64,000 nt of DNA from Demequina lutea. GTDB lineage: Bacteria > Actinomycetota > Actinomycetes > Actinomycetales > Demequinaceae. The DNA is taken from positions 19,099 to 83,098 of the forward strand of contig QKAX01000152.1 of assembly GCA_003246255.1 (NCBI GenBank), written 5' to 3'. How positions within the stretch are numbered: position 1 is the first letter of the stretch; each line of letters begins with the position of its first letter. The notes under the pieces are model-generated. The model did no database searches and had not been told where the DNA came from. It saw only the letters and a list, made by a program, of their open reading frames with translations. A program made the translations under genes and the position numbers. Below, one piece after another: positions 32,343-44,910 of the stretch.

Positions 32343-32869
32343 CTACGCGCCCGCCCCGCCGTGCGTCTCGCCCGTGTCCTCCATCTCCTCGCCGGAGAGC
32401 AGCCCGTGAGGGGGCGTCACGATCCGACCGCCCTCGATATCCACCTCGGGCACAAAGGCCTCCACCATAGGAATCATGGCGCGGTGGCCGTTGGGCTCCT
32501 TCACCACGAGCACGTCCTGCGCGGGCATCGCCATGACGTCAACGACCTTGCCAATCGCCGAGCCATCGGGGCGCACTGCGGCGAGGCCAACCAGCTCGCC
32601 CACGAACCACGCGTCCTCTTCCTCGTCCTCGACGGCCTCCATGACCAGCTCCACGCCGCGCGCGTTCTCGGCCGCGGTGCGGTCGCCGATCTGCTCAAAG
32701 CGCAGGTACCAGCGGCCCGCCTGGTCGCGCACCGAGGTGATCGTCAGCGGGCCAGCGCTGGCAGGCTCCGTCTCAACAGGCGCTCCTCGGGGATGTCGGT
32801 GCGCAGTTCGACCGATACCTCACCCTTGAGACCGTGAGCGCGCCCGATGCGCGCGACAGTGACCTTCAT
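32343..32869 (-). pseudogene. rimM: 16S rRNA processing protein RimM, interrupted by a frameshift (or an assembly indel)
   Basis: The N-terminus [31 protein letters not shown] (ATG 32869) is in one frame and stops at 32744. The rest (..[41 protein letters not shown]...PRC-barrel) is in another frame, which has a stop at 32820-32822. The start-to-stop span is 527 nt, which is 2 mod 3. Confidence 0.75.
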
Positions 32870-32966
32870 GGCGACAAGCCTAGAGGGGGCGCCGACGCGC
32901 GGCGCACCCGACGCGTGGCGCTCGCCACGTCTCGGAATAGCCCACAGCGCGCGGGGCGTTTCCCTC

Positions 32967-34628
32967 ATGACCCCGGGGGCCACACACGACGAAGGGCGAG
33001 CGGTGAGTTTCGACGACGACGCAACCGAGCACGCACCCGAGTTGAGCACGCCGCTCGGCTCGGAGGAGGACCTGCGCGCGGTGCCTGACGCGAGCGGCGA
33101 GACCCCGCGAGTGCTGGTCCTTGGAGCAACCGGCTACCTCGGTGGCCGCCTGGTTCCCCGGCTGCTCGCCGGCGGGTATCGAGTGCGAGTGCTGTCGCGG
33201 TCGGCGGCGCGTGTAGCAGAGATGCCGTGGTCGGGCGCACTCGACGTGGTGGAGGGAGACGCCTCCGACGCCGGCGTGGTGGCCGAAGCGATGCGCGGCG
33301 TCGACATCGTCTACCACCTGGTGCACTCGATGTACGGCGGCCGCGATTACGACGCCGTGGACCGCGGGATCGCGCGCCACGTGGCCGATGCCGCGGCGGC
33401 GGAGGGCGTGCGGCGCATCATTTACCTGGGCGGCCTCCACCCCGACGACGCGAAGCTGTCGCACCACCTCGAGTCGCGCCGCGAGGTGGGCACGATCCTG
33501 CTGGACTCCCCCACGCCCACGCTGGTGCTCAACGCGGGTGTGGTGATCGGCTCGGGCTCCGCATCCTTCGAGATGATCCGCCACCTCACCGAGGTGCTGC
33601 CGTACATGCCCGCGCCCAAGTGGGTACGTAACCGCATCCAACCCATCGCGGTGCGCGATGTGCTGCACTACTTGCTCGCGGCGGCGCGCGTGCCAGACGA
33701 CGTCAACCGCGAGTACGACATCGGCGGCCCCGACGTCATGACCTACGCCGAGATGATGAACGGCTACGCGGCGGCGGCGGGGCTGCCCAAGCGCGGCATC
33801 ACGGCGATCCCCGTGCTGTCTCCCAGCCTCGCCTCGCACTGGGTGGGGCTGGTGACGCCCGTTCCGCACCAGATCGCGCGCCCGCTGGTCGAGTCCCTGC
33901 TACACAACTGTGTGGTGGAGGGCGACCCAGTGTCGGACGTGATCCCTCCGCCCGAGGGCGGCCTCACCAGCTACGACGACTCGCTTCGATGGGCGATCGG
34001 CCGCGTGGAGATCGACCAGGTGGAGACGAGCTGGGTGGACGCAAGCGTCATGGGCGCGCCCAGCGAGCCGATGCCCAGCGACCCCGACTGGGCCGGCCGC
34101 ACCGTCTTCACGGACTCGCGCAGCAAGAAGTCGAGCGCGATGCCGGGCGCCGTGTGGCGCGTCCTGTCCCAGGTGGGCGGCGAGACCGGCTGGTATTCGG
34201 CGTCGGTGCTGTGGGCCGTGCGCGGATTCATGGACCGCCTCGCCGGCGGCGTGGGCCTGCGCAGGGGCCGCCGCACCACTCGCCGCATCCGCGTGGGCGA
34301 CGCCGTGGACGTGTGGCGCGTGGAGCACGTGGACCGCGGCCGTCTGCTCAGGCTACGCGCGGAGATGCGCGTGCCAGGCAAGGCGTGGCTCGAGCTCGCC
34401 GTCGACCCCACCGAGAACGGCTCGGTCTACCGCCAGCGCGCGGTGTTCTTCCCGCGAGGGCTCACGGGGCGCCTGTACTGGCTCGCGATGCTCCCGTTCC
34501 ACGGGCTCGTGTTCAGCGGCATGGTGAACCGCATCGTCGCCGAGGCGGAGGGCACGGCGCGCAGTCGCAAACGACGCAGCAGCAGGGCCCGCCGCAAGGC
34601 CGCTCGGCGCGAGAGCGCCTCGGCCTAG
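32967..34628 (+). CDS. NAD(P)-binding SDR-family protein with C-terminal DUF2867-like domain
   Basis: [15 protein letters not shown] Rossmann motif. The C-terminal 200 aa resemble DUF2867 ([21 protein letters not shown]). A basic tail follows. The ATG at 32967 avoids overlapping rimM. Confidence 0.8.
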
Positions 34629-34634
34629 AAAGCA

Positions 34635-34673
34635 CTCAGCCCCGGCCCCCCTTGCGGGGAAACCGGGGCTGAG
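34635..34673. terminator. bidirectional stem-loop between convergent genes
   Basis: CTCAGCCCCGG...CCGGGGCTGAG: 11-bp stem with further inner CCCC/GGGG pairing. It lies between the stop at 34628 (+) and the stop at 34686 (-). Confidence 0.65.
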
Positions 34674-34685
34674 CTGCGGCGTCGC

Positions 34686-34916
34686 TTACGCGACGTCGAC
34701 GATGTTGACTCGCACGTCATCGCGCGCAATGGCGTCGATGACTGTGCGGAGCGAAGAAGCGGTGCGGCCGTGGCGGCCGATGACGCGCGGCAGGTCGTCC
34801 GGGTGGACCACCACATTGAGCGTCACACCCCGACGGCCCGAGCGCTCCGTGACGCGCACGTCGTCCGGGTTACGAACGATCGAGCGGACCAGGAACTCGA
34901 GGGCCTCGAGGGTCAT
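34686..34916 (-). CDS. KH-domain RNA-binding protein (YlqC/UPF0109)
   Basis: VIGRHGRTASSLRTV GXXG-type KH motif. Conserved position directly after rpsP. Confidence 0.88.
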   Translation of the reverse strand: MTLEALEFLVRSIVRNPDDVRVTERSGRRGVTLNVVVHPDDLPRVIGRHGRTASSLRTVIDAIARDDVRVNIVDVA

Positions 34917-34919
34917 GGC

Positions 34920-35432
34920 TTACTTCTCCTCCTCGTCGAGGGTGCCCTCGACCTTGTCGTCAGCGTCCGACGGATCGCCCTCGGCGATCTCCACGTCGAC
35001 CTCGGTGCCCTCATCCGTGGGAACCTCGCTCGACTCGTCAGCGACGGTCTTGGCGGCTTCCTTGGCGGCAGCGGCCTCGGCCTTGAGCTTCTCGGCGGCG
35101 TCGGCGTGCGCCTTGATGGCGGCCTCGGCGTCGGCCTTGCCCTCGGCAAACTTGACGGTGCTCTTGGCATCCTTGTCGCCCTTGAAGATGCCCCAGTCAC
35201 CCGTGAGCTTCAGCAGCGCGGCGACCTGCTCCGAGGGCTGCGCGCCCACGCCGAGCCAGTACTGCGCACGCTCGGAGTTGATCTCGATGACCGAGGGCTC
35301 CTCCGTGGGGTGGTACTTGCCGATCTCCTCGATGGCACGGCCATCGCGCTTGGTGCGCGAGTCCATGACGACGACGCGGTAGTAAGGGGCGCGCTTCTTG
35401 CCAAAGCGCTTCAGGCGAATCTTGACAGCCAT
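34920..35432 (-). CDS. rpsP: 30S ribosomal protein S16 with long acidic/Ala-rich C-terminal extension
   Basis: [32 protein letters not shown] from the ATG at 35432. Confidence 0.94.
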
Positions 35433-35557
35433 GACTGTCTCTCCTTGCATTCGGTGTGAGCCGGGCGGGCCGATGCCCTGCCTGACAAGACGAATTGCCG
35501 CGCGGACGCGCGACAGCCCTCAAGTATGCCAGAAGAGGGGCGCGGCTGGCGACACCC

Positions 35558-36346
35558 TCAGTGGTGCAGCACGGAGGGCCACCCGGCGGACGACTCCGCG
35601 GCAAACGTGCCGTCGTCGTGCGCCTTGGTGATGACCAGCACCTCGAGGCCCTCGTCGAGCGCCGCCGAGAGAGTCTCCTCGCCGCCGGCAGCGATGGCCG
35701 TGGCCCACGCATCGGCCGAGACGAGGTCAGGGCCAACGACGGAGACCTGGATGTAGTGCTGCGCGCCCTCGCCCGTCTTGGGGTCCCAGATGTGCAGGCC
35801 GTGCTGCGCGATGCCCGAGGTGGCGAGCGCGCGGAACTTCCCGCCGAGCGAGATGACGTCCACCACGGGTGTGCCCGTGGGGTCGCCCTGCACGCGCGGA
35901 TCCGCGATGCCGAGCTGCCATTCCGTGCCCTCGCCGGACACCAGGATGTCTCCGGCGGCCCCCACCATCCACGCGGCGGGACCCATGCGGTCAAAGGCCT
36001 GCGCCCCGCGCGCCACGGCCCAGCCCTTCACCAACCCAGAGGGGTCGAGGTGATCGGGCCTGCGCGCGTCGAAGCCGCCATGCGTGGCCGAGCGGTACCA
36101 CTCGCACGCCTGCAGAATCTCGAGCATCTCGGGCTCGCACTCGTCCACCGCGAGCTCGCCGCGGTTGAGGCGGCTCAGCTGCGAATCCTCGATGAACAGC
36201 GAGAACACCTGGTCCGCCCACAGGAGCTCGTCATGAAAGGCCTTGACCGCCTCGGCGGCCGCCTGATCCGACGGCGGCAGACTCATCTGCACCGTGAAGG
36301 GCATCCCCATGGCGTGCACAGTGCTCGCGTAGGTGGCCAAACTCAT
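35558..36346 (-). CDS. apbE: FAD:protein FMN transferase (ApbE family); no signal peptide with this start
   Basis: AMGMPFTV..., DPSGLVKGWA, ALATSG motifs typical of ApbE/Ftp. The ATG at 36346 overlaps the TGA of the small upstream ORF (ATGA). The upstream part of the track ORF is Arg-rich off-frame-like sequence. Confidence 0.8.
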   Translation of the reverse strand: MSLATYASTVHAMGMPFTVQMSLPPSDQAAAEAVKAFHDELLWADQVFSLFIEDSQLSRLNRGELAVDECEPEMLEILQACEWYRSATHGGFDARRPDHLDPSGLVKGWAVARGAQAFDRMGPAAWMVGAAGDILVSGEGTEWQLGIADPRVQGDPTGTPVVDVISLGGKFRALATSGIAQHGLHIWDPKTGEGAQHYIQVSVVGPDLVSADAWATAIAAGGEETLSAALDEGLEVLVITKAHDDGTFAAESSAGWPSVLHH

Positions 36347-36489
36347 GACGTGGCTTCTCCTTCCGATGCGGGCGCCTGCGTGGGCACCACCAGCGTGAGC
36401 GTGGGCAGCTCCTTGGGTGAAACGGCGTAACCCGCCGCAACGATTCCCGCGCACAGCACGAAGACGCCGATGGCGCGCGCGGGCCTCAT
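36343..36489 (-). CDS. 48-aa single-TM peptide (below the ORF-track cut-off)
   Basis: MRPARAIGVFVLCAGIVAAGYAVSPKELPTLTLVVPTQAPASEGEATS. Its ATG overlaps the stop of the FMN-binding gene by 1 nt, and its TGA overlaps the apbE ATG. Confidence 0.55.
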   Translation of the reverse strand: MRPARAIGVFVLCAGIVAAGYAVSPKELPTLTLVVPTQAPASEGEATS

Positions 36490-36896
36490 CACTGCTGTGC
36501 CTCGTCCAGTGCCCCGGCGATGGACTCGATGTAGGCGGGCGACGTGAACGACGCTCCGGACACCTCGTCCACGTTGGCGCTCTGCGCCGCCAGGACGCGC
36601 GCCTCAAGCTCGGGCACAGCGAACGAGTTGACCTGCAACGACTCCGGGTCTTGAGTGCCCGCCTCCACCGGATCGACGGCGGTGATCACGCCACCCTCGA
36701 TGGTGACCTGTGCCTGGTAGCCGCCCTTGATGTTGGTGACTCGCGGGCCCACGTACACGCCATCCGCGTACGTGGCCGAGGCCGCGGTATCGTCGCCCCC
36801 TGCCGCGGGGGCCGCTGGCTCATCGGCCGCGCCGGACGAGCACGCCGCTAGCAAAGACACGGACGCGGTAGTCCAGATCAGGGTCTTGGTGGTCAT
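36489..36896 (-). CDS. FMN-binding domain lipoprotein (flavinylation motif present)
   Basis: MTTKTLIWTTASVSLLAAC lipobox. NVDEVSGASFTS fits the Dxx[ST]GA[ST] ApbE target motif. ATGA overlap with the upstream reductase gene. Confidence 0.82.
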   Translation of the reverse strand: MTTKTLIWTTASVSLLAACSSGAADEPAAPAAGGDDTAASATYADGVYVGPRVTNIKGGYQAQVTIEGGVITAVDPVEAGTQDPESLQVNSFAVPELEARVLAAQSANVDEVSGASFTSPAYIESIAGALDEAQQ

Positions 36897-38263
36897 CGAT
36901 CCTCCTCGTGGAATCCAAACGCTTCCCGATGCACGCTCTCGCGCGCCACTCCCGACGCCCTCGCATCGTCCTCGACGGCGTCGGCCCATCGGCCCGGGCC
37001 GCAGATGTACACATCGCGCTCCGCGACGTCACTCACCAGGCCTGCGAGCGTCGCGTCGGAACCCCTCGCCGCCCAGCCCGCCCCGCGAGCGCCGTCAAGG
37101 ATGTGAAGGCGCGCGCCAGCCGCCTTGGCGAGCGTCACGACCTCGTCGCGCAGCGGCGCCTCGTCGAGGGCGCGCACGCGCCAGATGACGTCGACCTCGC
37201 CATCGGCGGGCGTCCAGCCGCTCAGGAGCGCCCGCACGGGCGTGATGCCGATGCCTGCGGCCACGAGCACTGCCCCCGGCTTGGTGCGCGCGCGCTGAGT
37301 GAAGACGCCGAACGGGCCCTCGACCACCACTCGTGTGCCGGGCTCCAGGGTCGCGAGCGCGGCCGAGCCGTCGCCCGCGGGCCGCGCCGTGAGGCGAAGG
37401 CCGTCGCTCGCGAGATCCGACACCGTGAAGGGATGCGCCGCGCGCCAGCGACCGGCGTCGAGGAACCTCCACAGCAAGAACTGACCGGGTTCTACCCTCA
37501 GCCGGGCAACGTCGGGACCGGAGACCCGCACGGACGTCGCGCCGCCGGGCTCGCTCAGCACCGACTCCACACGCAGTCCGCCGCGTGCTGCACGCACGGC
37601 TGGCACCACGAGGCGGAAGACCACGACGGAGCCAAACGCCACCACGTAGATGGCGAACCAGAACCACCACGCCGCTCCCCCGTTGCGGAACGTCGATCCC
37701 TCAAGGAACTGGTGAGGCACGGCCGCGGCGATTCCGATGTACGTCAGCAGGTGCACAGCGTGCCACGTCTCATAGCGCCAGCGCCTGCGCACGATCGCGA
37801 TGGACGTGGCCAGCACCACCAAGAACGCGCCGAGCGCGATCTGCGCGGCGGCGAGATACCAGGCGGATGTGCCCAGCTCGATCGACGCCTGCCACACCGG
37901 CATGCCCGCGTGGTACGCCGTCATCGCCACGATGATGCCCGCGTGGGCCAGCATCGCGATCACTGCAAACTTGCCGAGGGACGTGTGCGCCGCCACTGCG
38001 CGGTCGTGACCGAGCACCTTCTCGACGAACGGAACCCGCGCCACGAGCGTCACCTGGGTGAGCATCAGTACGGCGGCGATGAGGCCGAGCGCGCGGCCCA
38101 CGATGTACACCCAATCGACAGCGGTGACCGTAAGAAGACCGCCGTCGGCGATGAAGAGCGAGAGCGCCACCGACGCGAGAATCCACGGAGTGGCGGCAAG
38201 GCCGTCGGCCCACCACGACCGCGCGGAGGCGCGTCGGGCGGCGAGTGTCGCGTCGGCGGTCAT
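36893..38263 (-). CDS. NOX/ferric-reductase-like membrane protein: di-heme TM domain plus FAD/NAD(P)H (FNR-type) domain, paralog 1
   Basis: His pairs HTSLGKFAVIAMLAH (i, i+14) and HLLTYIGIAAAVPH (i, i+13). Motifs HPFTVS, AAGIGITP and YICGP. ATG at 38263. Confidence 0.82.
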   Translation of the reverse strand: MTADATLAARRASARSWWADGLAATPWILASVALSLFIADGGLLTVTAVDWVYIVGRALGLIAAVLMLTQVTLVARVPFVEKVLGHDRAVAAHTSLGKFAVIAMLAHAGIIVAMTAYHAGMPVWQASIELGTSAWYLAAAQIALGAFLVVLATSIAIVRRRWRYETWHAVHLLTYIGIAAAVPHQFLEGSTFRNGGAAWWFWFAIYVVAFGSVVVFRLVVPAVRAARGGLRVESVLSEPGGATSVRVSGPDVARLRVEPGQFLLWRFLDAGRWRAAHPFTVSDLASDGLRLTARPAGDGSAALATLEPGTRVVVEGPFGVFTQRARTKPGAVLVAAGIGITPVRALLSGWTPADGEVDVIWRVRALDEAPLRDEVVTLAKAAGARLHILDGARGAGWAARGSDATLAGLVSDVAERDVYICGPGRWADAVEDDARASGVARESVHREAFGFHEEDR

Positions 38264-38353
38264 CGGCGGCCTTTCTGGTCGTCTGGCTGCGAGGCTTGCC
38301 CTCGCAACGCGCGAGCTGCGCCAGCCATTCCCGGTAGCCGGCGCCAATCGGAC

Positions 38354-39769
38354 TTACCAGACGTACTCCTCGCGGTGCAGGCGCTGTTCGGGGACGCCGC
38401 AGCGGCGCGCCTCGTCAAGGATCTGGCCCGCCCACTCCTCGGGGCCGCACACGTACACATCCGATGCCGCGAGCGCTGGTGCAAGCTGCGACATGCGGGC
38501 GGCAAGCCCCTCGGGAAGCCACCCGTGACCACGTCGGCCGGTCAGCAGATACAACGTCGCGCCGCGCTCACGCACCATCTCGCGCACCTCGTCGAGATGG
38601 GGAATCTGATCCTCGGTGCGAGCGCGCAGCATCACCACGATGGGCGCCGAGCCATCCAGGCCCTCAAGCACCGACACGATGGGCGCGATGCCCGATCCGG
38701 CGCCCACAAGCACCATTCCGGGGCTCTGGCGCAGGTCGGCTCGGAAGCGGCCGAGGGGACCCTCGACCATCACGCGGGTGCCCACCTGGAGCGTCGCGAT
38801 GTCCTCGGTGTGGTCGCCCACCACCTTGACGGTGATGCGGAGGTACTCGTTGCTGGGTGCGGCTGAGAGCGAGAACGGGTGCGCCTGCGCCCACATGCCG
38901 GCCGTGAGGAAGCGCCACTCGAAGAACTGCCCTGGCAGCGCCTTCATGCGGTCGAGGCCGCGGCCCCGCACCCACACCGACACCGTGCCGTCGGCGTGGT
39001 GGTCCACGCGCGCCACTCGCAGGTCGTAGCGGAAGAAGGAGACAAGGGGGCGGCCGATGCGCCACGCCAGGAAGCCGCCCACCGCCACCGCCCACAGCGC
39101 GATCCAATACCAGCGGGCGAGGGTGGCGAGCCCGGTACCTGCCCACCCGGCGAACGTGGTGCCACTGCTGAACTGGTGAGGAATCGCGAAACCGACGGAG
39201 ACGTACGTGAGCAGGTGCACCACGTGCCACGTCTCGTACCTCCACGCAGCCCGCACCGCCGCAAGCGACGTGCCGATCACGGCGAGCAGCAGCCAGAATC
39301 CGATGACGGAGAGCGTCATGTCGCTGCCGAAGTGCAGCAGGAAGGACCATGACTGGTCCCACCACCCGGTCTGGGTGCGCGCGCCGTATCCCAGCACCAG
39401 CGTGATGACGTGCGCGGCCATCGCGAAGAATCCCATGCGACCCAGCTGGCCGTGCATCAACAGGGCACGATCGTGCCCGATGCGACGCTCCACCCACGGG
39501 ATGCGCGCGGCGAGGATGAGCTGCACCATCATCATCTGGCCCGCAACGATGCCCGTCGCACGGCCGATCGTGGTGAGCGCGTCTCCCACGCTGGAAATGG
39601 GCGCTCCCATCGCAAACATGAGCGACAGGGCGCCCGCTCCGGTGAGCCAGAAGACTGATTCGAGGGTGTCGGTGCGGGCCGCGTCGCGCTCCCACGTGCG
39701 CGCGAACATGGCCGCGAGGCCGTTGCGCTGCTTCACGTGAGGAAGCTCCCGAGTGGCGGTGGCGGTCAT
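38354..39769 (-). CDS. NOX/ferric-reductase-like membrane protein, paralog 2
   Basis: HGQLGRMGFFAMAAH and HLLTYVSVGFAIPH His pairs. Motifs HPFSLS, GAGSGIAP and VYVCGP. ATGA overlap with the upstream FMN-binding gene. Confidence 0.85.
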   Translation of the reverse strand: MTATATRELPHVKQRNGLAAMFARTWERDAARTDTLESVFWLTGAGALSLMFAMGAPISSVGDALTTIGRATGIVAGQMMMVQLILAARIPWVERRIGHDRALLMHGQLGRMGFFAMAAHVITLVLGYGARTQTGWWDQSWSFLLHFGSDMTLSVIGFWLLLAVIGTSLAAVRAAWRYETWHVVHLLTYVSVGFAIPHQFSSGTTFAGWAGTGLATLARWYWIALWAVAVGGFLAWRIGRPLVSFFRYDLRVARVDHHADGTVSVWVRGRGLDRMKALPGQFFEWRFLTAGMWAQAHPFSLSAAPSNEYLRITVKVVGDHTEDIATLQVGTRVMVEGPLGRFRADLRQSPGMVLVGAGSGIAPIVSVLEGLDGSAPIVVMLRARTEDQIPHLDEVREMVRERGATLYLLTGRRGHGWLPEGLAARMSQLAPALAASDVYVCGPEEWAGQILDEARRCGVPEQRLHREEYVW

Positions 39770-40341
39770 GCGAGGCCGGCCGACTGCATCGCGCTCTGCA
39801 CGGACAGCAGGATTCCCTGCGACGTGTACGACGCGCCAGAGACGCCCGAGACGTTGTAGGTCTGCGCCTCAAGCACGCGAGAGATGATGGTCGGCTCGGA
39901 CCGTGACTTGATCTGCGTGGACTCGCGATCCGTGTCGCCGTCCTGGAGGATGTTCACGGCCGTGATCACGCCGTCGGAGACCGCCAGGGACACCTGGTAG
40001 TTGCCGTAGCGGGTCTGCACAGTCGCGCCCGTGTACGTGCCGGTCACGCCTGCGGGCGCGGCGGGGGCGGTCTCGGCGGGAGCCGCCTGCGTCGACGTGT
40101 CGGTGGTGGCGGTCTCGCTGGGCGTCGCCGTCTCGCTGGGCGTGGCCGACTCCGACGCGGTGGGCGACTCGCTCGCCGTCGGGCTGGGCGACGTGGTGGT
40201 GCTATCGGTGGTCGCGTCGGCGACGAGTGACAGGCCCGACGATTCAGCCGATGCGGCAGTAGCGATCAGTCCGGCGGCCCAGCCTGCACCGATCATCACG
40301 GTGCCGACGGTGCCAACCACCGCAGCCCTGCTCTTCCTCAT
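39766..40341 (-). CDS. exported FMN-binding domain protein with Ser/Thr/Pro-rich linker
   Basis: MRKSRAAVVGTVGTVMIGAGWAAGLIATAASA signal. Linker is SPTASESPTASESATPSETATPSETAT. NVSGVSGASYTS motif. The ATG at 40341 is preceded by GGAGGA. Confidence 0.82.
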   Translation of the reverse strand: MRKSRAAVVGTVGTVMIGAGWAAGLIATAASAESSGLSLVADATTDSTTTSPSPTASESPTASESATPSETATPSETATTDTSTQAAPAETAPAAPAGVTGTYTGATVQTRYGNYQVSLAVSDGVITAVNILQDGDTDRESTQIKSRSEPTIISRVLEAQTYNVSGVSGASYTSQGILLSVQSAMQSAGLA

Positions 40342-40431
40342 GATTCCTCCTGGATGCCCGATCCGGCCACTCACCGCGGCCGTCTATTACCCAGGTTCGT
40401 CACCGCACCTCACAAAACGCTGTGAGTGTCG

Positions 40432-41517
40432 TCACAGTGCGCGGTGACCTTTGAGGAATACCGCAGAGGGATGTGTGATGGCACCGATCTCCGCACGGGG
40501 ATCCGCGTCAAGCACCACCACATCTGCGGGGTCTCCCTCCGCCAGGACTGGCGCACCCAGGAAGCGGCGCGCCCTCCAGGTGGCCGCGGCGACCACGTCG
40601 GCGGCTGGCATGCAGCGAGCCATCTCGGCGGCCTCGCGCCCCAGGTCGCCGTGTGCGATCGACGTGCCTGCGTCGGTGCCCACCAGGAGCACCACGCCTG
40701 CGTCGTGCATCTGGCCTACCTGTTCGTAGCGGCGGTCGTACATGCGCTGCATCCGCGCGGCGAAGCGCGGGAACTTGTCGCGACCCTGAGCGGCAAACGA
40801 CGCGAAGTTGGCGATCTGCAGCAACGTGGGGATCACCGGGATCCCGGCGGCTGCCGCGCGTTCCATGTGCGCCTCGGACATGCCGGTGCCGTGCTCGATC
40901 GAGTCGAGGCCCGCGTCGAGCAGCGCATCAACGGACTCCGTGGCAAACGTGTGAGCAGTGACCCTGGCTCCCTCCGCGTGGGCGGCCGCCACGGCATCGG
41001 CGAGTTGCTGGGGCTCCCATAGCGGGGTGAGGTCCGCCTCGTCGCCCAGATCGCGGTCGATCCAGTCGGCGATGATCTTGACCCAGTCGCCCGATGCCCT
41101 CGCCTGGCGCGCCGCCTCGGCCGGAAGCTCGTGCGGCTCGACCTCCACGCCGTAGCCCTTGAGGTAGCGCTTTGGGCGCGCGATGAAGCGACCCGAGCTG
41201 CGCACATCGGGCACGTCGGTGCGGCCCTCAATGGCAACGAGGCTCGTCGCGGAGCCGGTGTCGCGCACCAGCAACACCCCGGCATCGCGCTCCACGTGCG
41301 CCTGCTTGAGCACCAGGTCCCCATCGACGGGACCGGTGGGGCCCACCGACAGGTGGCAGTGCATGTCCACAAAGCCGGGCAGCGCCCAGCCGGACACGCT
41401 CTCCACCTCGGTATAAGCGGGGCGCTCGTACGTGATGCGCTCGCCGAGCACCCAGGCCCTGGCGTGCTCGACGCCGTCGTCGGCGAGCACCGGGCCCGTG
41501 AGCTCGTACGCTGTCAT
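40432..41517 (-). CDS. amidohydrolase family metallo-hydrolase
   Basis: PGFVDMHCHL (HxH metal site), ...HTFATESV..., GTDAG... ATGA overlap with the ffh stop. Confidence 0.82.
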   Translation of the reverse strand: MTAYELTGPVLADDGVEHARAWVLGERITYERPAYTEVESVSGWALPGFVDMHCHLSVGPTGPVDGDLVLKQAHVERDAGVLLVRDTGSATSLVAIEGRTDVPDVRSSGRFIARPKRYLKGYGVEVEPHELPAEAARQARASGDWVKIIADWIDRDLGDEADLTPLWEPQQLADAVAAAHAEGARVTAHTFATESVDALLDAGLDSIEHGTGMSEAHMERAAAAGIPVIPTLLQIANFASFAAQGRDKFPRFAARMQRMYDRRYEQVGQMHDAGVVLLVGTDAGTSIAHGDLGREAAEMARCMPAADVVAAATWRARRFLGAPVLAEGDPADVVVLDADPRAEIGAITHPSAVFLKGHRAL

Positions 41518-43109
41518 CCGCGCAGGTATTTGTTGAGGCTCGGCAGGCTATTGGGGTCGAACTCCGGCTGCTGCGGCTGCGCTCCTAGCCCAAAGGCCGA
41601 GCCCGCCGGGGCCTGGGCCGGCCCGCGATCCTGCTGCGCTCGCTCCTGCTGAGCACGCTTCGCGGGATTGCCCGACTTGCCCTTGACCTTGCGCTGCGGC
41701 GCCTGCTTGCCCTTTGACTTCTTGCCGCCTGGCAGCCCACCGAACGCGCCAGGCCCGCTGCCCATGCCGGGCATCGCTGGCATGCCGCCACCGCCCGCCA
41801 TGGCCTTCATCATGCGCTGCGCGTCGTCGAACCGCTTGATGAGCGAGTTGACCTGTGCCACCGACGTGCCGGAGCCCGCCGCGATGCGCGAGCGGCGCGA
41901 GCCGTTCAGCACCTTGGGGTTGTCACGCTCCTGGGGCGTCATCGACTGGATGATCGCCTCGGTGCGCGTCAGCTCCTTCTCGTCGAGGTTGTCGATCTGC
42001 TCGCGCATCTGACCCATGCCGGGCAGCATCGTGAGCATCTTCTGCAGCGAGCCCATGTTCTTGAGCTGCTGCATCTGGCTCAGGAAGTCCGTGAGAGTGA
42101 AGTCCTCGCCCTTGGACATCTTGTCGGCCATGCGCTGCGCCTCGGCCTGGTCGAACGTGCGCTCGGCCTGCTCGATCAGCGTGAGGATGTCGCCCATGTC
42201 CAGGATGCGGCTGGCCATGCGCTCGGGGTGGAACACCTCGAGGTCGTCGATCTTCTCGCCCGTGGAGGCAAACATGATCGGCACGCCCGTGACCTCGCGC
42301 ACGGACAGCGCGGCGCCACCGCGCGCGTCGCCGTCGAGCTTCGACAGCACCACGCCCGTCATCGCGACGCCCGCCTGGAAGGCCTGCGCTGTGGACACGG
42401 CGTCCTGACCGATCATCGCGTCGATGACGAACAGCACCTCGTCCGGGTCGATCGCCTTACGAATGTCGCCGGCCTGGCGCATGAGCTCCTGGTCGACGCC
42501 CAGGCGGCCAGCCGTGTCGACGATCACCACGGAGTGCTGACGCTTCTCAGCCTCCTTGATGGCGTTCTTTGCCACCTTGACCGGGTTGCCCTTGGCCTTC
42601 TCGTCCTCGCGGGTGACGCCGCGCTCGGGGGCGAAGACGGGAACGCCCGCTCGCTCGCCGACCACCTCGAGCTGGGTCACCGCGTTGGGGCGCTGCAGGT
42701 CCGCCGCCACGAGCAGCGGGGTGTGCCCCTGCTGCTTCAAGTGGTGCGCGAGCTTGCCGGCGAATGTGGTCTTACCGGCACCCTGAAGACCCGCAAGCAT
42801 GATCACAGTGGGACCCGACTTGGCGAAGCTCAGCGACCGCGTCTGACCGCCGAGGATCTCGATGAGCTCCTCGTTGACGATCTTGACGACCTGCTGGCCG
42901 GGGTTCAGCGCCCCCGACACCTCGGCCCCTACCGCGCGCTCGCGGATGCGACCGATGAAGGTGGTGACAACTGGCAGCGCGACGTCGGCGTCGAGCAGGG
43001 CGCGCCGAATCTCGCCGAGGGTCTGGTCGATGTCCGCCTCGGACAGTCGGCCCTTGCCCCTCAGGGTACGGAACGTCGCTGTGAGGCGATCGGACAGGCT
43101 CGCGAACAC
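41514..43109 (-). CDS. ffh: signal recognition particle protein Ffh
   Basis: VFASLSDRLT..., GLQGAGKTT, DTAGR, M-domain with Met-rich segment. GTG start. Confidence 0.96.
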   Translation of the reverse strand: MFASLSDRLTATFRTLRGKGRLSEADIDQTLGEIRRALLDADVALPVVTTFIGRIRERAVGAEVSGALNPGQQVVKIVNEELIEILGGQTRSLSFAKSGPTVIMLAGLQGAGKTTFAGKLAHHLKQQGHTPLLVAADLQRPNAVTQLEVVGERAGVPVFAPERGVTREDEKAKGNPVKVAKNAIKEAEKRQHSVVIVDTAGRLGVDQELMRQAGDIRKAIDPDEVLFVIDAMIGQDAVSTAQAFQAGVAMTGVVLSKLDGDARGGAALSVREVTGVPIMFASTGEKIDDLEVFHPERMASRILDMGDILTLIEQAERTFDQAEAQRMADKMSKGEDFTLTDFLSQMQQLKNMGSLQKMLTMLPGMGQMREQIDNLDEKELTRTEAIIQSMTPQERDNPKVLNGSRRSRIAAGSGTSVAQVNSLIKRFDDAQRMMKAMAGGGGMPAMPGMGSGPGAFGGLPGGKKSKGKQAPQRKVKGKSGNPAKRAQQERAQQDRGPAQAPAGSAFGLGAQPQQPEFDPNSLPSLNKYLRG

Positions 43110-43137
43110 GGCACTCCCTTCACGTGTGCGGTGCCGA

Positions 43138-44910
43138 CTAGCCTACCTGGGGCCCACCCGCCGCGGAGCGCACGGTGGCCGACAGGGTGTCGACAAGCTG
43201 CTCGCGCCACGATGTCCACGCCTTGGGGCTTGCCGCCCTGGCATCGGCCTCGGTGAGCGCGCGCAACATCTCAAACAGGTCGAGCCTGCCGTCGAGCCGC
43301 GCCACCAGCTCGCGCGCCACCGTGGGGTCGTTCGGATCGCGGGCCGTGGCAAAGTCGGCGAGCGTGAGATGCTCACGCACCAGCGTCGCCATGTCGGCGA
43401 TGAAGGCGGGCTCGAGGCCCATCTGCGCGCCGAGGTCAGGAATCATCGCGGCACCCTCGATCGAGTGGTCGGCGACGCCCGCCTGTTTGCCGATGTCGTG
43501 GAACAGCGCCGTGTGCAGCAACAGGTCGAGGTCCTTCACTTGGCGCTTCATGCGACCGGCGATCACCACTGTCTCCACCATGTGACGATCCACCGTGTAC
43601 ACGTGGAAGGCGTTGCGCTGCGGGCGGTTGCGCACCGCCGCCCATTGCGGCAGCCACCTCACCACCTGTCTGTCCACGTCGAGCGCCTCCCACACGCCCA
43701 CCAGGTGGTTCGACGCGCGCAGGAGGTCGGCAAAGTGCTGGCGAGCCTCGGCCGGCCACGGGCGCGGAGGCTCGGGGCACGTCGTCAGTGTCTCCAGCAG
43801 GCTCGGCGTGAAGCCAAGTCCGCGCGTCGCGGCCGCGGCTGCTGCTCGCAGCGGCAGCGTCACGTCGCCGGAGGCGTCGTGACCCGGCGCGAGCGCGAGG
43901 TCGCCGTCCACATCGATGAGGCCTTCGGCTACCGGCACGTGGCGTGGGGCTGTACCACGCCGACGAGCGAGGAAGGCTCGGGATCCCACGCCAGACTTCT
44001 CGAGCGAGCGCCGCGCGCCGCGCTCAGTGGTGTCTACGGCGAACGCGATGGTGCGGCCCGCGTCGGCGATCGAGCTCAGCAGATCGTCGACGTCGTCGTA
44101 TTTCATGTGCTCGGCGACCTCGGCGGCGACGTGCCTGCCCACGATCTGCACAGCGCGCCCGGAGACGATCTGCAGTGCATCGCGCACGTCGAGCAAGTGA
44201 TTCGCGGCGTCGTCAACGGCTCCGTGCGGCTTGTCGGTGAGCCAGGTCGCCGCGAGCGCAGTGAGGCTCACGTAGTCTCGCAGTCCGCCGCGCGACTCCT
44301 TGAGGTTGGGCTCAATGAGGTAGGCGAGCTCGCCAAAGCGTTCAGACCGCGCGCGCGAGGCGGCCAGCAGTTCGGGCAGGCGGGTGCGAGCAGCGGATCG
44401 CCAATCGGCGAGAATCGCCGAGCGCGCCTGCTGAGCCAGCGAGTCGTCACCCGCAATGTGGCGCAGATCAAGAAGACCCGCAGCCGCAGCGAGGTCCTTC
44501 GACGCTACCTGGCGGCACTCGACGAGCGAACGTGTCGAATGGTCGAGCGGAAGCGACGCATCCCAGATGGGATACCAGAGCTTCTGGGCGGCGTCCGCGG
44601 CCAGCGCCTTGCCTGCCGACGTGCCGTCGTGCAGGAGCACCAGGTCGAGGTCCGAGTACGGACCTGCCTCCCCCCTGCCGACGCTGCCGACGGCGGCCAG
44701 GGTCAGGCCCTTGGCCGCGCCGACGACAGTCACAAAGTGCTCCGTGAGACGCGCGTAGACGAGCTCGGCCAGCGCGGCCCTCCGCTCGCGTCCCGGGTGG
44801 TCGGCGAGAGAGGCGGCTAGCTCCGCCCTCTCACGCTTGAGGTCCCGCACCCCAGCGGGATGCGGGACCTCAGCGTGCGAGTCGTCACGGACAGAGTCCG
44901 AGAGACCCAT
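43138..44910 (-). CDS. glnD: [protein-PII] uridylyl/adenylyl-transferase GlnD, short form (nucleotidyltransferase + HD domains only)
   Basis: GSVGRGEAGPYSDLDLVLLH NT motif, HTALFHDIGK HD motif. The ORF ends about 120 aa after the HD motif. Downstream of amt-glnK. Confidence 0.85.
   Translation of the reverse strand: MGLSDSVRDDSHAEVPHPAGVRDLKRERAELAASLADHPGRERRAALAELVYARLTEHFVTVVGAAKGLTLAAVGSVGRGEAGPYSDLDLVLLHDGTSAGKALAADAAQKLWYPIWDASLPLDHSTRSLVECRQVASKDLAAAAGLLDLRHIAGDDSLAQQARSAILADWRSAARTRLPELLAASRARSERFGELAYLIEPNLKESRGGLRDYVSLTALAATWLTDKPHGAVDDAANHLLDVRDALQIVSGRAVQIVGRHVAAEVAEHMKYDDVDDLLSSIADAGRTIAFAVDTTERGARRSLEKSGVGSRAFLARRRGTAPRHVPVAEGLIDVDGDLALAPGHDASGDVTLPLRAAAAAATRGLGFTPSLLETLTTCPEPPRPWPAEARQHFADLLRASNHLVGVWEALDVDRQVVRWLPQWAAVRNRPQRNAFHVYTVDRHMVETVVIAGRMKRQVKDLDLLLHTALFHDIGKQAGVADHSIEGAAMIPDLGAQMGLEPAFIADMATLVREHLTLADFATARDPNDPTVARELVARLDGRLDLFEMLRALTEADARAASPKAWTSWREQLVDTLSATVRSAAGGPQVG

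Follow-up and report, generated by a model that had tools for sequence, protein, structure and literature searches.

What is encoded by a compact six-gene cluster lodged between ffh and rpsP in Demequina lutea, and could its products carry reducing power from the cytoplasm to the outer face of the membrane? This question was addressed with a 64,000-nucleotide stretch of contig QKAX01000152.1 (assembly GCA_003246255.1, positions 19,099 to 83,098 of the forward strand), referred to as the window. On its reverse strand, positions 35558-40341 hold six co-directional genes that encode an FMN_bind protein (FMNbA), two NOX-type reductases (NOX2, then NOX1), an FMN_bind lipoprotein (FMNbB), a 48-aa membrane peptide and ApbE. 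This cluster probably constitutes two parallel NOX-type modules, in which electrons would pass from NAD(P)H to flavin adenine dinucleotide (FAD), then through two successive hemes to a covalently bound flavin mononucleotide (FMN). To judge from its gene content, it is a further member of the catalogued "MsrQ-like" class. What is new locally is the anchor relic of a third FMN_bind gene (FMNbC), the history of the two modules and an ApbE without a signal peptide.

The MsrQ-like systems were described by Méheust et al. (2021, eLife, PMC8238504) as those in which a PF01794 gene is part of a flavinylation-associated cluster, within five genes of ApbE or FMN_bind. They comprise 1797 clusters in 1468 genomes, show wide conservation across Actinobacteria, and were proposed to perform an NAD(P)H-driven transmembrane electron transfer to a flavinylated protein. 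AlphaFold models, including that of a natural MsrQ-FMN_bind fusion, followed (Huang et al. 2024, mSystems, PMC11334425). In the window, two PF01794 genes have two PF04205 genes and one PF02424 gene as neighbors, and NAD_binding_1 is detected above its cut-off. An earlier interpretation made from the letters alone (the sequence-only reading) had drawn the route from NAD(P)H to FAD, two hemes and an extracytoplasmic covalent FMN; this route equals the published MsrQ-like model (PMC8238504) and fits the NOX fold described below.

The domain content of the cluster is well established. Above the curated Pfam cut-offs, Ferric_reduct was found in NOX2 (2e-15) and NOX1 (3.6e-13), NAD_binding_1 in both (1.7e-5 and 6e-6, respectively), FAD_binding_8 in NOX2 only (3e-5), FMN_bind in FMNbA (7.4e-8) and FMNbB (8.9e-5), and ApbE in the last gene product (9.1e-33). 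These five domains were all recovered in this way, and the domain assignments of the sequence-only reading are confirmed; the FNR-family and ApbE matches of NCBIfam were all sub-threshold. The two reductases share 40% identity, and a repeat scan showed one 75-nt stretch that is 75% identical between their genes, as expected of paralogues. The predicted heme ligands of NOX2 are H106/H120 (i/i+14) and H185/H198 (i/i+13), with HPFS (HPFSL) at 297, GSGIAP at 358 and CGP at 441. Those of NOX1 are H93/H107 and H171/H184, with HPFT (HPFTV) at 277, GIGITP at 337 and CGP at 421. These His pairs and the HPF(T/S), GxGxxP and CGP motifs had all been pointed out from the letters. A comparison of 35 homologues showed no variation in the four heme histidines, HP, the GxG..P motif or CGP.

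A hydropathy scan places both His pairs of NOX1 and the first pair of NOX2 within hydrophobic segments, and in the AlphaFold model of NOX2 the pairs are carried by the long helices H99-132 and H178-195, H198 standing in the next short helix (H198-201). NOX1 and NOX2 both pass the sequence filters of Hajjar et al. (2017) for bacterial NOX, including the bis-His criterion (His-X12/14-His twice, placed in transmembrane helices 3 and 5 and separated by 20 residues or more). The MsrPQ type does not apply to them: both reductases have fused FAD/NAD domains, and no MsrP-like partner gene is present in the cluster. Structure modelling and Foldseek comparison were carried out for NOX2. The model (predicted local distance difference test, pLDDT, 86.8; predicted TM-score, pTM, 0.82) combines a six-helix ferric-reductase domain with an FNR-like dehydrogenase domain, which is the NOX fold. 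Its top matches are the SpNOX structures 8QQ7, 8QTA and 8QT6, aligned over their full length with E-values of 4.5e-16 to 1.1e-15 and TM-scores of 0.75-0.77 (SpNOX-normalised); human NOX2, DUOX1 and NOX5 come next.

Two other histidines of NOX2, H99 (39473-39475) and H182 (39224-39226), are also invariant in 35/35 homologues. H99 belongs to a GHD motif just ahead of helix 3, and H182 to a W-H-x-x-H motif just ahead of the inner heme ligand of helix 5. On the cytoplasmic side, both might be part of the FAD-to-heme interface.

The putative acceptors of these electrons are the two FMN_bind proteins, whose export signals were judged by hand and from hydropathy rather than with SignalP. In FMNbA, the FMN_bind domain is preceded by an N-terminal signal anchor (MRKSRAAVVGTVGTVMIGAGWAAGLI) and a linker rich in Thr, Ser and Pro; the N-terminus of the protein opens with the positively charged MRKSR, followed by a hydrophobic segment at residues 6-32 (a stretch of about 23 residues). 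FMNbB carries the lipobox LLAAC at residues 15-19 (36840-36854), which is kept in the B-type orthologues of the loci L011, L013 (D. pelophila) and L015 (D. mangrovi). On the basis of this lipobox and of the hydrophobic anchor of FMNbA, both FMN domains are predicted to lie outside the membrane. Targets with a signal peptide or a lipidation site, of which the MsrQ-like class calls for at least one, are therefore present.

The flavinylation motif reads SGVSGAS in FMNbA (39829-39849; predicted target Ser171) and DEVSGAS in FMNbB (36549-36569; predicted target Ser116), the latter being a full match to D-x-x-S-G-A-S. Both proteins match SaFMN3-D2 (PDB 8P2A), at 3.1e-9 for FMNbA and 1.3e-10 for FMNbB, and the SGAS of FMNbA aligns with the flavinylated SGAT of this structure. 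In SaFMN3-D2, which is flavinylated by ApbE, is O2-reactive and has a midpoint potential (Em) of -184 mV, the Thr-phosphoester FMN was confirmed by crystallography (PMC10339131). Ser is an acceptor tolerated by ApbE, less well than Thr (PMC12052999). The B-type orthologues L011:12837-13250 and L013:12956-13441 read SGSS, an Ala to Ser change relative to the SGAS of the window.

The mechanism that follows the published model would run in four steps. The C-terminal dehydrogenase domain of each NOX would accept, on its FAD, a hydride delivered by NAD(P)H in the cytoplasm. Single electrons would then pass via the inner and the outer b-heme, held by the His pairs of helices 3 and 5. The outer heme would reduce the FMN, bound by a phosphoester to the Ser of an FMN_bind protein on the outer face of the membrane, where FMNbA would be tethered by its signal anchor and FMNbB by its lipid. 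The single ApbE would load FMN on both proteins. The likeliest terminal acceptors would be chelates of Fe(III), O2 or some other soluble oxidant outside the cytoplasm.

Several points weigh against this scheme. The loading with heme, FAD and covalent FMN is a property that we infer, along with the direction and path of the electrons and the pairing of each NOX with its neighboring FMN_bind protein. In FMNbA, the Asp that opens the D-x-x-[ST]-G-A-[ST] consensus is replaced by a Ser; an Asp-to-Ala replacement in the flavinylation motif had minor effects only (ApbE review, PMC12052999). ApbE is predicted to be cytoplasmic and its targets are exported, a departure from canonical biogenesis that is examined below. 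SpNOX reduces O2 directly, with no flavoprotein partner, whereas the acceptor in Demequina is presumed to be a flavoprotein. No acceptor gene (VIT1, iron transporter or reductase) is found in the cluster, and no IdeR/DtxR box (TWAGGTWAGSCTWACCTWA, up to 3 mismatches) in the window. Finally, the literature searched yielded bioinformatic descriptions of the MsrQ-like class only and no experimental characterisation, so that the phrase "sparsely characterised", used in the sequence-only reading, was a fair one.

The arrangement of the genes, called from the listing of open reading frames and by inspection of start codons, matches the division into modules. As read from the sequence, FMNbA and NOX2 overlap by ATGA at 39766-39769, NOX1 and FMNbB by ATGA at 36893-36896, and the 48-aa peptide and ApbE by ATGA at 36343-36346, while FMNbB and the peptide have base 36489 in common within TGATG. 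The six co-directional genes and the four overlaps listed in the sequence-only reading are thus all found; the continuous chain that it described is not, the NOX2 stop (38354) and the NOX1 start (ATG 38263) being about 90 nt apart. This ATG is most likely the start of NOX1, and the alternative TTG at 38347 has no Shine-Dalgarno sequence. The same junction measures 92-243 nt in L011, L013 and L015, and the ATGA overlapping the NOX2 start is kept in relatives. Because of this spacer, the cluster falls into two translationally coupled blocks, FMNbA-NOX2 and NOX1-FMNbB-peptide-ApbE, the boundaries of which are the same as those of the two modules.

Features of the cluster in the window (reverse strand, listed in the direction of the genes except for the hairpins, given last)
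Feature	Position	Strand	Remarks
FMN_bind A (FMNbA)	39766-40341	-	191 aa, exported; ATG start preceded by AGGAGG
NOX2	38354-39769	-	471-aa NOX-type flavocytochrome b
Spacer between modules	38264-38353	-	about 90 nt; sole junction of the cluster without overlap
NOX1	36893-38263	-	456-aa NOX-type flavocytochrome b, paralogue of NOX2
FMN_bind B (FMNbB)	36489-36896	-	135-aa lipoprotein; GAGGAGG before the start
48-aa peptide	36343-36489	-	single-pass membrane peptide; FMNbC anchor remnant
ApbE	35558-36346	-	262 aa, FAD:protein FMN transferase family; ATG behind GGAAGGAG
Terminator-like hairpin	40420-40437	-	upstream of the cluster, across the stop codon of the amidohydrolase gene; consensus scan only
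Terminator-like GC-rich hairpin	35496-35515	-	between the ApbE stop and rpsP; consensus scan only

The consensus scan returned 4 terminator-like sites for 1.7 expected. The hairpin upstream of the cluster may hint at a transcript of its own, and the one behind apbE at the 3' end of the operon. A scan for sigma-70 promoters gave no sites, and Rfam gave no regulatory RNA match over 34000-43500 with E up to 1.

This tight arrangement bears on the possibility that NOX1 and NOX2 act on their own as SpNOX-like NADPH oxidases, which would convert O2 to superoxide at the outer heme, FMN_bind and ApbE having a separate, modulating or scavenging function. SpNOX, the best structural match, is indeed a constitutively active O2 reducer, and on a JGI contig (L019, described below) a NOX2-like gene with 61% identity to NOX2 has neither FMN_bind nor ApbE for company. 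In the cluster, however, ATGA overlaps couple each NOX to an FMN_bind gene. NOX, FMN_bind and ApbE are moreover adjacent in 20 loci from Demequina, Sinomonas, other Actinomycetota and metagenomes, and this adjacency persists across divergent Actinomycetota at 36-41% identity; natural MsrQ-FMN_bind fusions (PMC11334425) and the 1797 clusters of the class (PMC8238504) point in the same direction. Because the gene linkage is both tight and ancient, a function restricted to O2 reduction is disfavored and appears improbable.

Another question is whether the two-module system serves iron acquisition. As a special case of the electron route proposed here, the cluster could be an assimilatory ferric reductase, whose extracytoplasmic FMNH2 would reduce Fe(III)-siderophores or chelates for uptake. 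The architecture is that of the fungal FRE and plant FRO proteins (Pfam Ferric_reduct), and iron reduction was proposed for the 153 MsrQ-like clusters that contain a VIT1 iron transporter (PMC8238504). On the other hand, no iron-transport gene lies in or beside the cluster in any examined Demequina locus, the IdeR-type box is missing from the window, as mentioned above, and the setting among ribosomal and signal recognition particle genes suggests constitutive rather than iron-regulated expression. This specialized role is therefore possible, even if somewhat unlikely.

The enzyme that would load FMN on both acceptors raises a different problem. The ApbE of the window matches the PDB entries 4XGW/2O18 (E. 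coli, Salmonella) at 3e-12, and the conserved motifs GLVKGWAV, ALATSG, HIWDPKTG and DAWATAI are all present. Its start, preceded by a strong Shine-Dalgarno sequence, is located 12 residues ahead of the conserved AMGMPFTV motif, and no signal peptide, lipobox or hydrophobic segment was found in the protein. Compared with a canonical extracytoplasmic ApbE, it thus has the domain and the family motifs and lacks the N-terminal export signal. An alternative start that would provide a signal peptide was considered and rejected, the in-frame upstream sequence being hydrophilic and Arg-rich.

The absence of a signal is not restricted to this window: the cluster-linked ApbE proteins of Demequina, Sinomonas and four metagenome-assembled genomes of Actinomycetota are all signal-less alike. 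A HMMER scan of 1.84 billion representatives gave 1147 matches to this ApbE subfamily at E <= 1e-10. Among the best 150 of these 1147, the median length is 261 aa. The conserved N-terminal motif could be located in 123 sequences and begins among residues 1-30 in about 113 of them; none of the longer N-terminal extensions is hydrophobic. Three subfamily representatives were sampled for their context; in two of them apbE directly follows an FMN_bind gene (L027, which also has a NOX gene, and L029), and the contig of the third was too short.

The sequence-only reading had assumed flavinylation by ApbE outside the cytoplasm, as in the accepted view, and an enzyme and a subfamily devoid of signal peptide, lipobox and hydrophobic segment speak against it. 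Cytosolic ApbE has been described for cytosolic targets only, and a seven-residue tag suffices for flavinylation (2025 ApbE review, PMC12052999). Since such a short tag is enough, flavinylation of an unfolded precursor before export is conceivable. It can be suggested, with considerable reserve, that the ApbE proteins of this short subfamily, which has roughly 1,000 representatives and is linked with the NOX-FMN_bind-ApbE triplets of actinobacteria, would be cytoplasmic and would flavinylate FMN_bind proteins in the unfolded state before Sec or lipoprotein export, or else that ApbE would cross the membrane by an unrecognised route. If true, either route would be a biogenesis logic unlike that of the characterised ApbE systems with exported targets, and FAD export would no longer be needed in these monoderms. 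Export of pre-flavinylated FMN_bind by the twin-arginine (Tat) pathway was rejected, as no consistent twin-arginine motif exists in the anchors. A signal-less ApbE associated with targets that are exported is concretely at odds with the accepted view of flavinylation outside the cytoplasm, and this disagreement between the locations of enzyme and target is the main unexplained feature of the cluster.

The 48-aa peptide encoded just ahead of apbE had been recorded in the sequence-only reading as a plain transmembrane peptide, and its origin was missed. Its first 37 residues or so align to the N-terminal anchor of the intact FMNbC proteins, which are 268 aa long in D. pelophila and 218 aa in D. 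mangrovi, and likewise to the module-1 FMN_bind protein of D. capsici; by tblastn, it is 53% identical to the N-terminus of the D. pelophila FMNbC (2e-9). The acidic linker and the FMN domain of FMNbC are missing in the window, L001 and L011. On the strength of these alignments, the peptide is what is left of a third FMN_bind gene, namely its membrane anchor, the rest having been deleted. An equivalent short open reading frame occurs in L001 and L011; there and in the window, its end overlaps the start codon of apbE (RTGA). Between the window, L001 and L011, the proportion of amino-acid-changing differences (pN) is 0.21-0.33 against 0.65-0.72 for silent ones (pS), a ratio like that of the neighboring genes, in a small sample of 48 codons and three sequences with saturated synonymous sites. 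This large excess of silent differences suggests that the anchor-only reading frame is translated and constrained. It may be under selection as a subunit docking on the NOX membrane domain. The peptide is not essential for ApbE, since L018 has an ApbE and no peptide.

A possible function of the peptide as an N-terminal anchor of ApbE, joined to it by a frameshift, programmed or not, was discarded: the peptide is homologous to the FMNbC anchor and not to ApbE. The RTGA overlap in three lineages and the peptide-free ApbE of L018 also disfavor such a fusion, and no slippery sequence was seen by eye at the peptide/ApbE junction. In the intact D. pelophila FMNbC (L013:13441-14247), the linker that joins the anchor to the FMN domain is highly acidic and repetitive, with repeats such as DRDTEDRES and DDHDDDRDSEDRESD, which hints at the binding of metal cations or at a long spacer.

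The origin of the two modules can be followed at a single chromosomal position, as orthology and synteny are well established there. The best homologues all belong to Demequina (Micrococcales, Demequinaceae); the contig that bears the window is metagenome-derived and 89.8 kb long. The slot between ffh-amidohydrolase and rpsP-KH-rimM-trmD holds the system in 9/9 other loci, all from Demequina or Demequina-related organisms; the amidohydrolase search likewise gave Demequina-type matches only. These nine loci display one or two modules in at least five gene orders, and their NOX identity falls to about 40-45%. D. globuliformis (L020) and D. litorisediminis (L021) have a single NOX-FMNb-ApbE module, and D. 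capsici (L016) has two canonical triplets with one ApbE apiece. The order is FMNb-NOX-FMNb-NOX-ApbE in L018 and FMNbA-NOX-NOX-FMNbB-FMNbC-ApbE, with an intact FMNbC, in D. pelophila and D. mangrovi. The order of the window, in which the 48-aa peptide replaces FMNbC, is found in L001 and L011.

Identity matrices connect these arrangements. In D. globuliformis and D. litorisediminis, the only NOX is 50-53% identical to NOX1 versus 40-43% to NOX2, and NOX1, the B/C-type FMN_bind and ApbE are orthologous to this single-module set; NOX1 is also orthologous to the NOX of D. capsici module 1. FMNbA is orthologous to the A-type FMN_bind of L011, L013 and L015 and to the second FMN_bind (module 2) of D. 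capsici, and NOX2 has no clear orthologue in the latter species. Judged by this orthology, module 1 (NOX1, FMNbB and ApbE) is ancestral at the ffh/rpsP locus, and module 2 (FMNbA and NOX2) is a later addition that would use the same ApbE. The earlier proposal of two modules served by one flavin transferase is borne out by this analysis.

The same proposal had presented the cluster as an accessory insertion, and a recently acquired island between housekeeping genes has to be considered. Housekeeping genes do flank both sides, and the canonical triplet occurs at other genomic positions in Sinomonas, Actinoplanes, Kutzneria and other Actinomycetota. Against a recent acquisition, the same slot is occupied in all nine Demequina-type loci over the whole range of NOX identity quoted above, the G+C content of the cluster (0.67-0.74) is like that of the flanks, and its surroundings showed neither flanking repeats nor tRNA-type signatures nor genes for mobility. 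An island of this kind is thus very improbable; to judge from the loci compared, the system is an old, rearranging and genus-wide resident of the ffh/rpsP locus.

Several neighboring and distant genes deserve mention. In the window, an NmrA-like NAD(P)-binding/DUF2867 gene (32847-34628, forward strand, opposite to the cluster) separates the KH-domain gene from rimM; L018 has it too, and most other Demequina loci lack it. Between apbE and rpsP, D. globuliformis (L020:12761-13390, 209 aa) and D. litorisediminis (L021:13074-13538, 154 aa) have an extra gene without Pfam match, which is not found in the window. The solitary NOX2-like gene mentioned above (L019:8001-9398) is borne by a 229.6-kb contig (JGI 3300033553 Ga0371479_10055759), where it adjoins a thioredoxin gene among phage-family genes (DNA primase phrog_6444, 5e-91; phrog_33734, 4e-79) and genes with NlpC/P60 and transglycosylase tail-like domains. 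This contig could represent a jumbo phage or else a large mobile element bearing a NOX-type gene, and no close relative of it was found in IMG/VR. More distant NOX-type relatives (32-34% identity) are present on five viral-classed IMG/VR contigs (L022-L026, UViG_3300032271_001005 and four others). In 3/5 of them an FMN_bind-like open reading frame lies 2-5 kb downstream of the NOX-type gene; the genes on these contigs may belong either to phages or to host flanks of prophages.

For this window alone, the outcome is an expected member of a catalogued family with modest local details. In a broader perspective, the MsrQ-like class may be the main quinone-free route by which cytoplasmic reducing power crosses the membrane in many Actinobacteria. 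This bacterial class is related to the NADPH oxidases of eukaryotes, and the literature searched offered no demonstration of what it reduces. The Demequina series, with one or two modules, two or three FMN_bind genes and an anchor relic at one fixed locus, could reveal which parts are required.

How does this cluster compare with known systems? With SpNOX (8QQ7, 8QT6; PMC5676040, PMC11031084), the reductases share the two-domain fold, the bis-His spacing and the FAD/NADPH motifs, and SpNOX is likewise independent of regulatory subunits. The identity is however only 16-18%, and SpNOX has no FMN_bind or ApbE partner. E. coli MsrQ (YedZ), which works with MsrP and Fre, is also a b-type membrane cytochrome with a ferric-reductase domain that feeds an extracytoplasmic partner; it differs by the lack of a fused dehydrogenase domain and of ApbE, and its partner is the molybdoenzyme MsrP. 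SaFMN3 of Streptomyces azureus (8P2A; PMC10339131), an actinobacterial secreted FMN_bind protein with an ApbE-installed phosphoester FMN, is the closest solved homologue of FMNbA and FMNbB. It has three tandem domains and a Thr acceptor, whereas in the Demequina proteins there is only one domain, the acceptor is a Ser, and anchoring is to the membrane or by a lipid. With the MsrQ-like class as a whole, the cluster shares the proposed route from NAD(P)H via heme to an extracytosolic flavin; here, two reductase modules are served by one ApbE, the order, a non-canonical one, is FMNb-NOX-NOX-FMNb-peptide-ApbE, and the third FMN_bind is reduced to its anchor. The main text of the two papers on this class (PMC8238504, PMC11334425) is silent on the absence of a signal peptide from ApbE. 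In Klebsiella pneumoniae, the cytoplasmic ApbE that serves the fumarate reductase (cited in PMC12052999) is similarly devoid of a signal peptide. Its target is cytoplasmic, whereas the candidate targets close to the Demequina enzyme all carry export signals.

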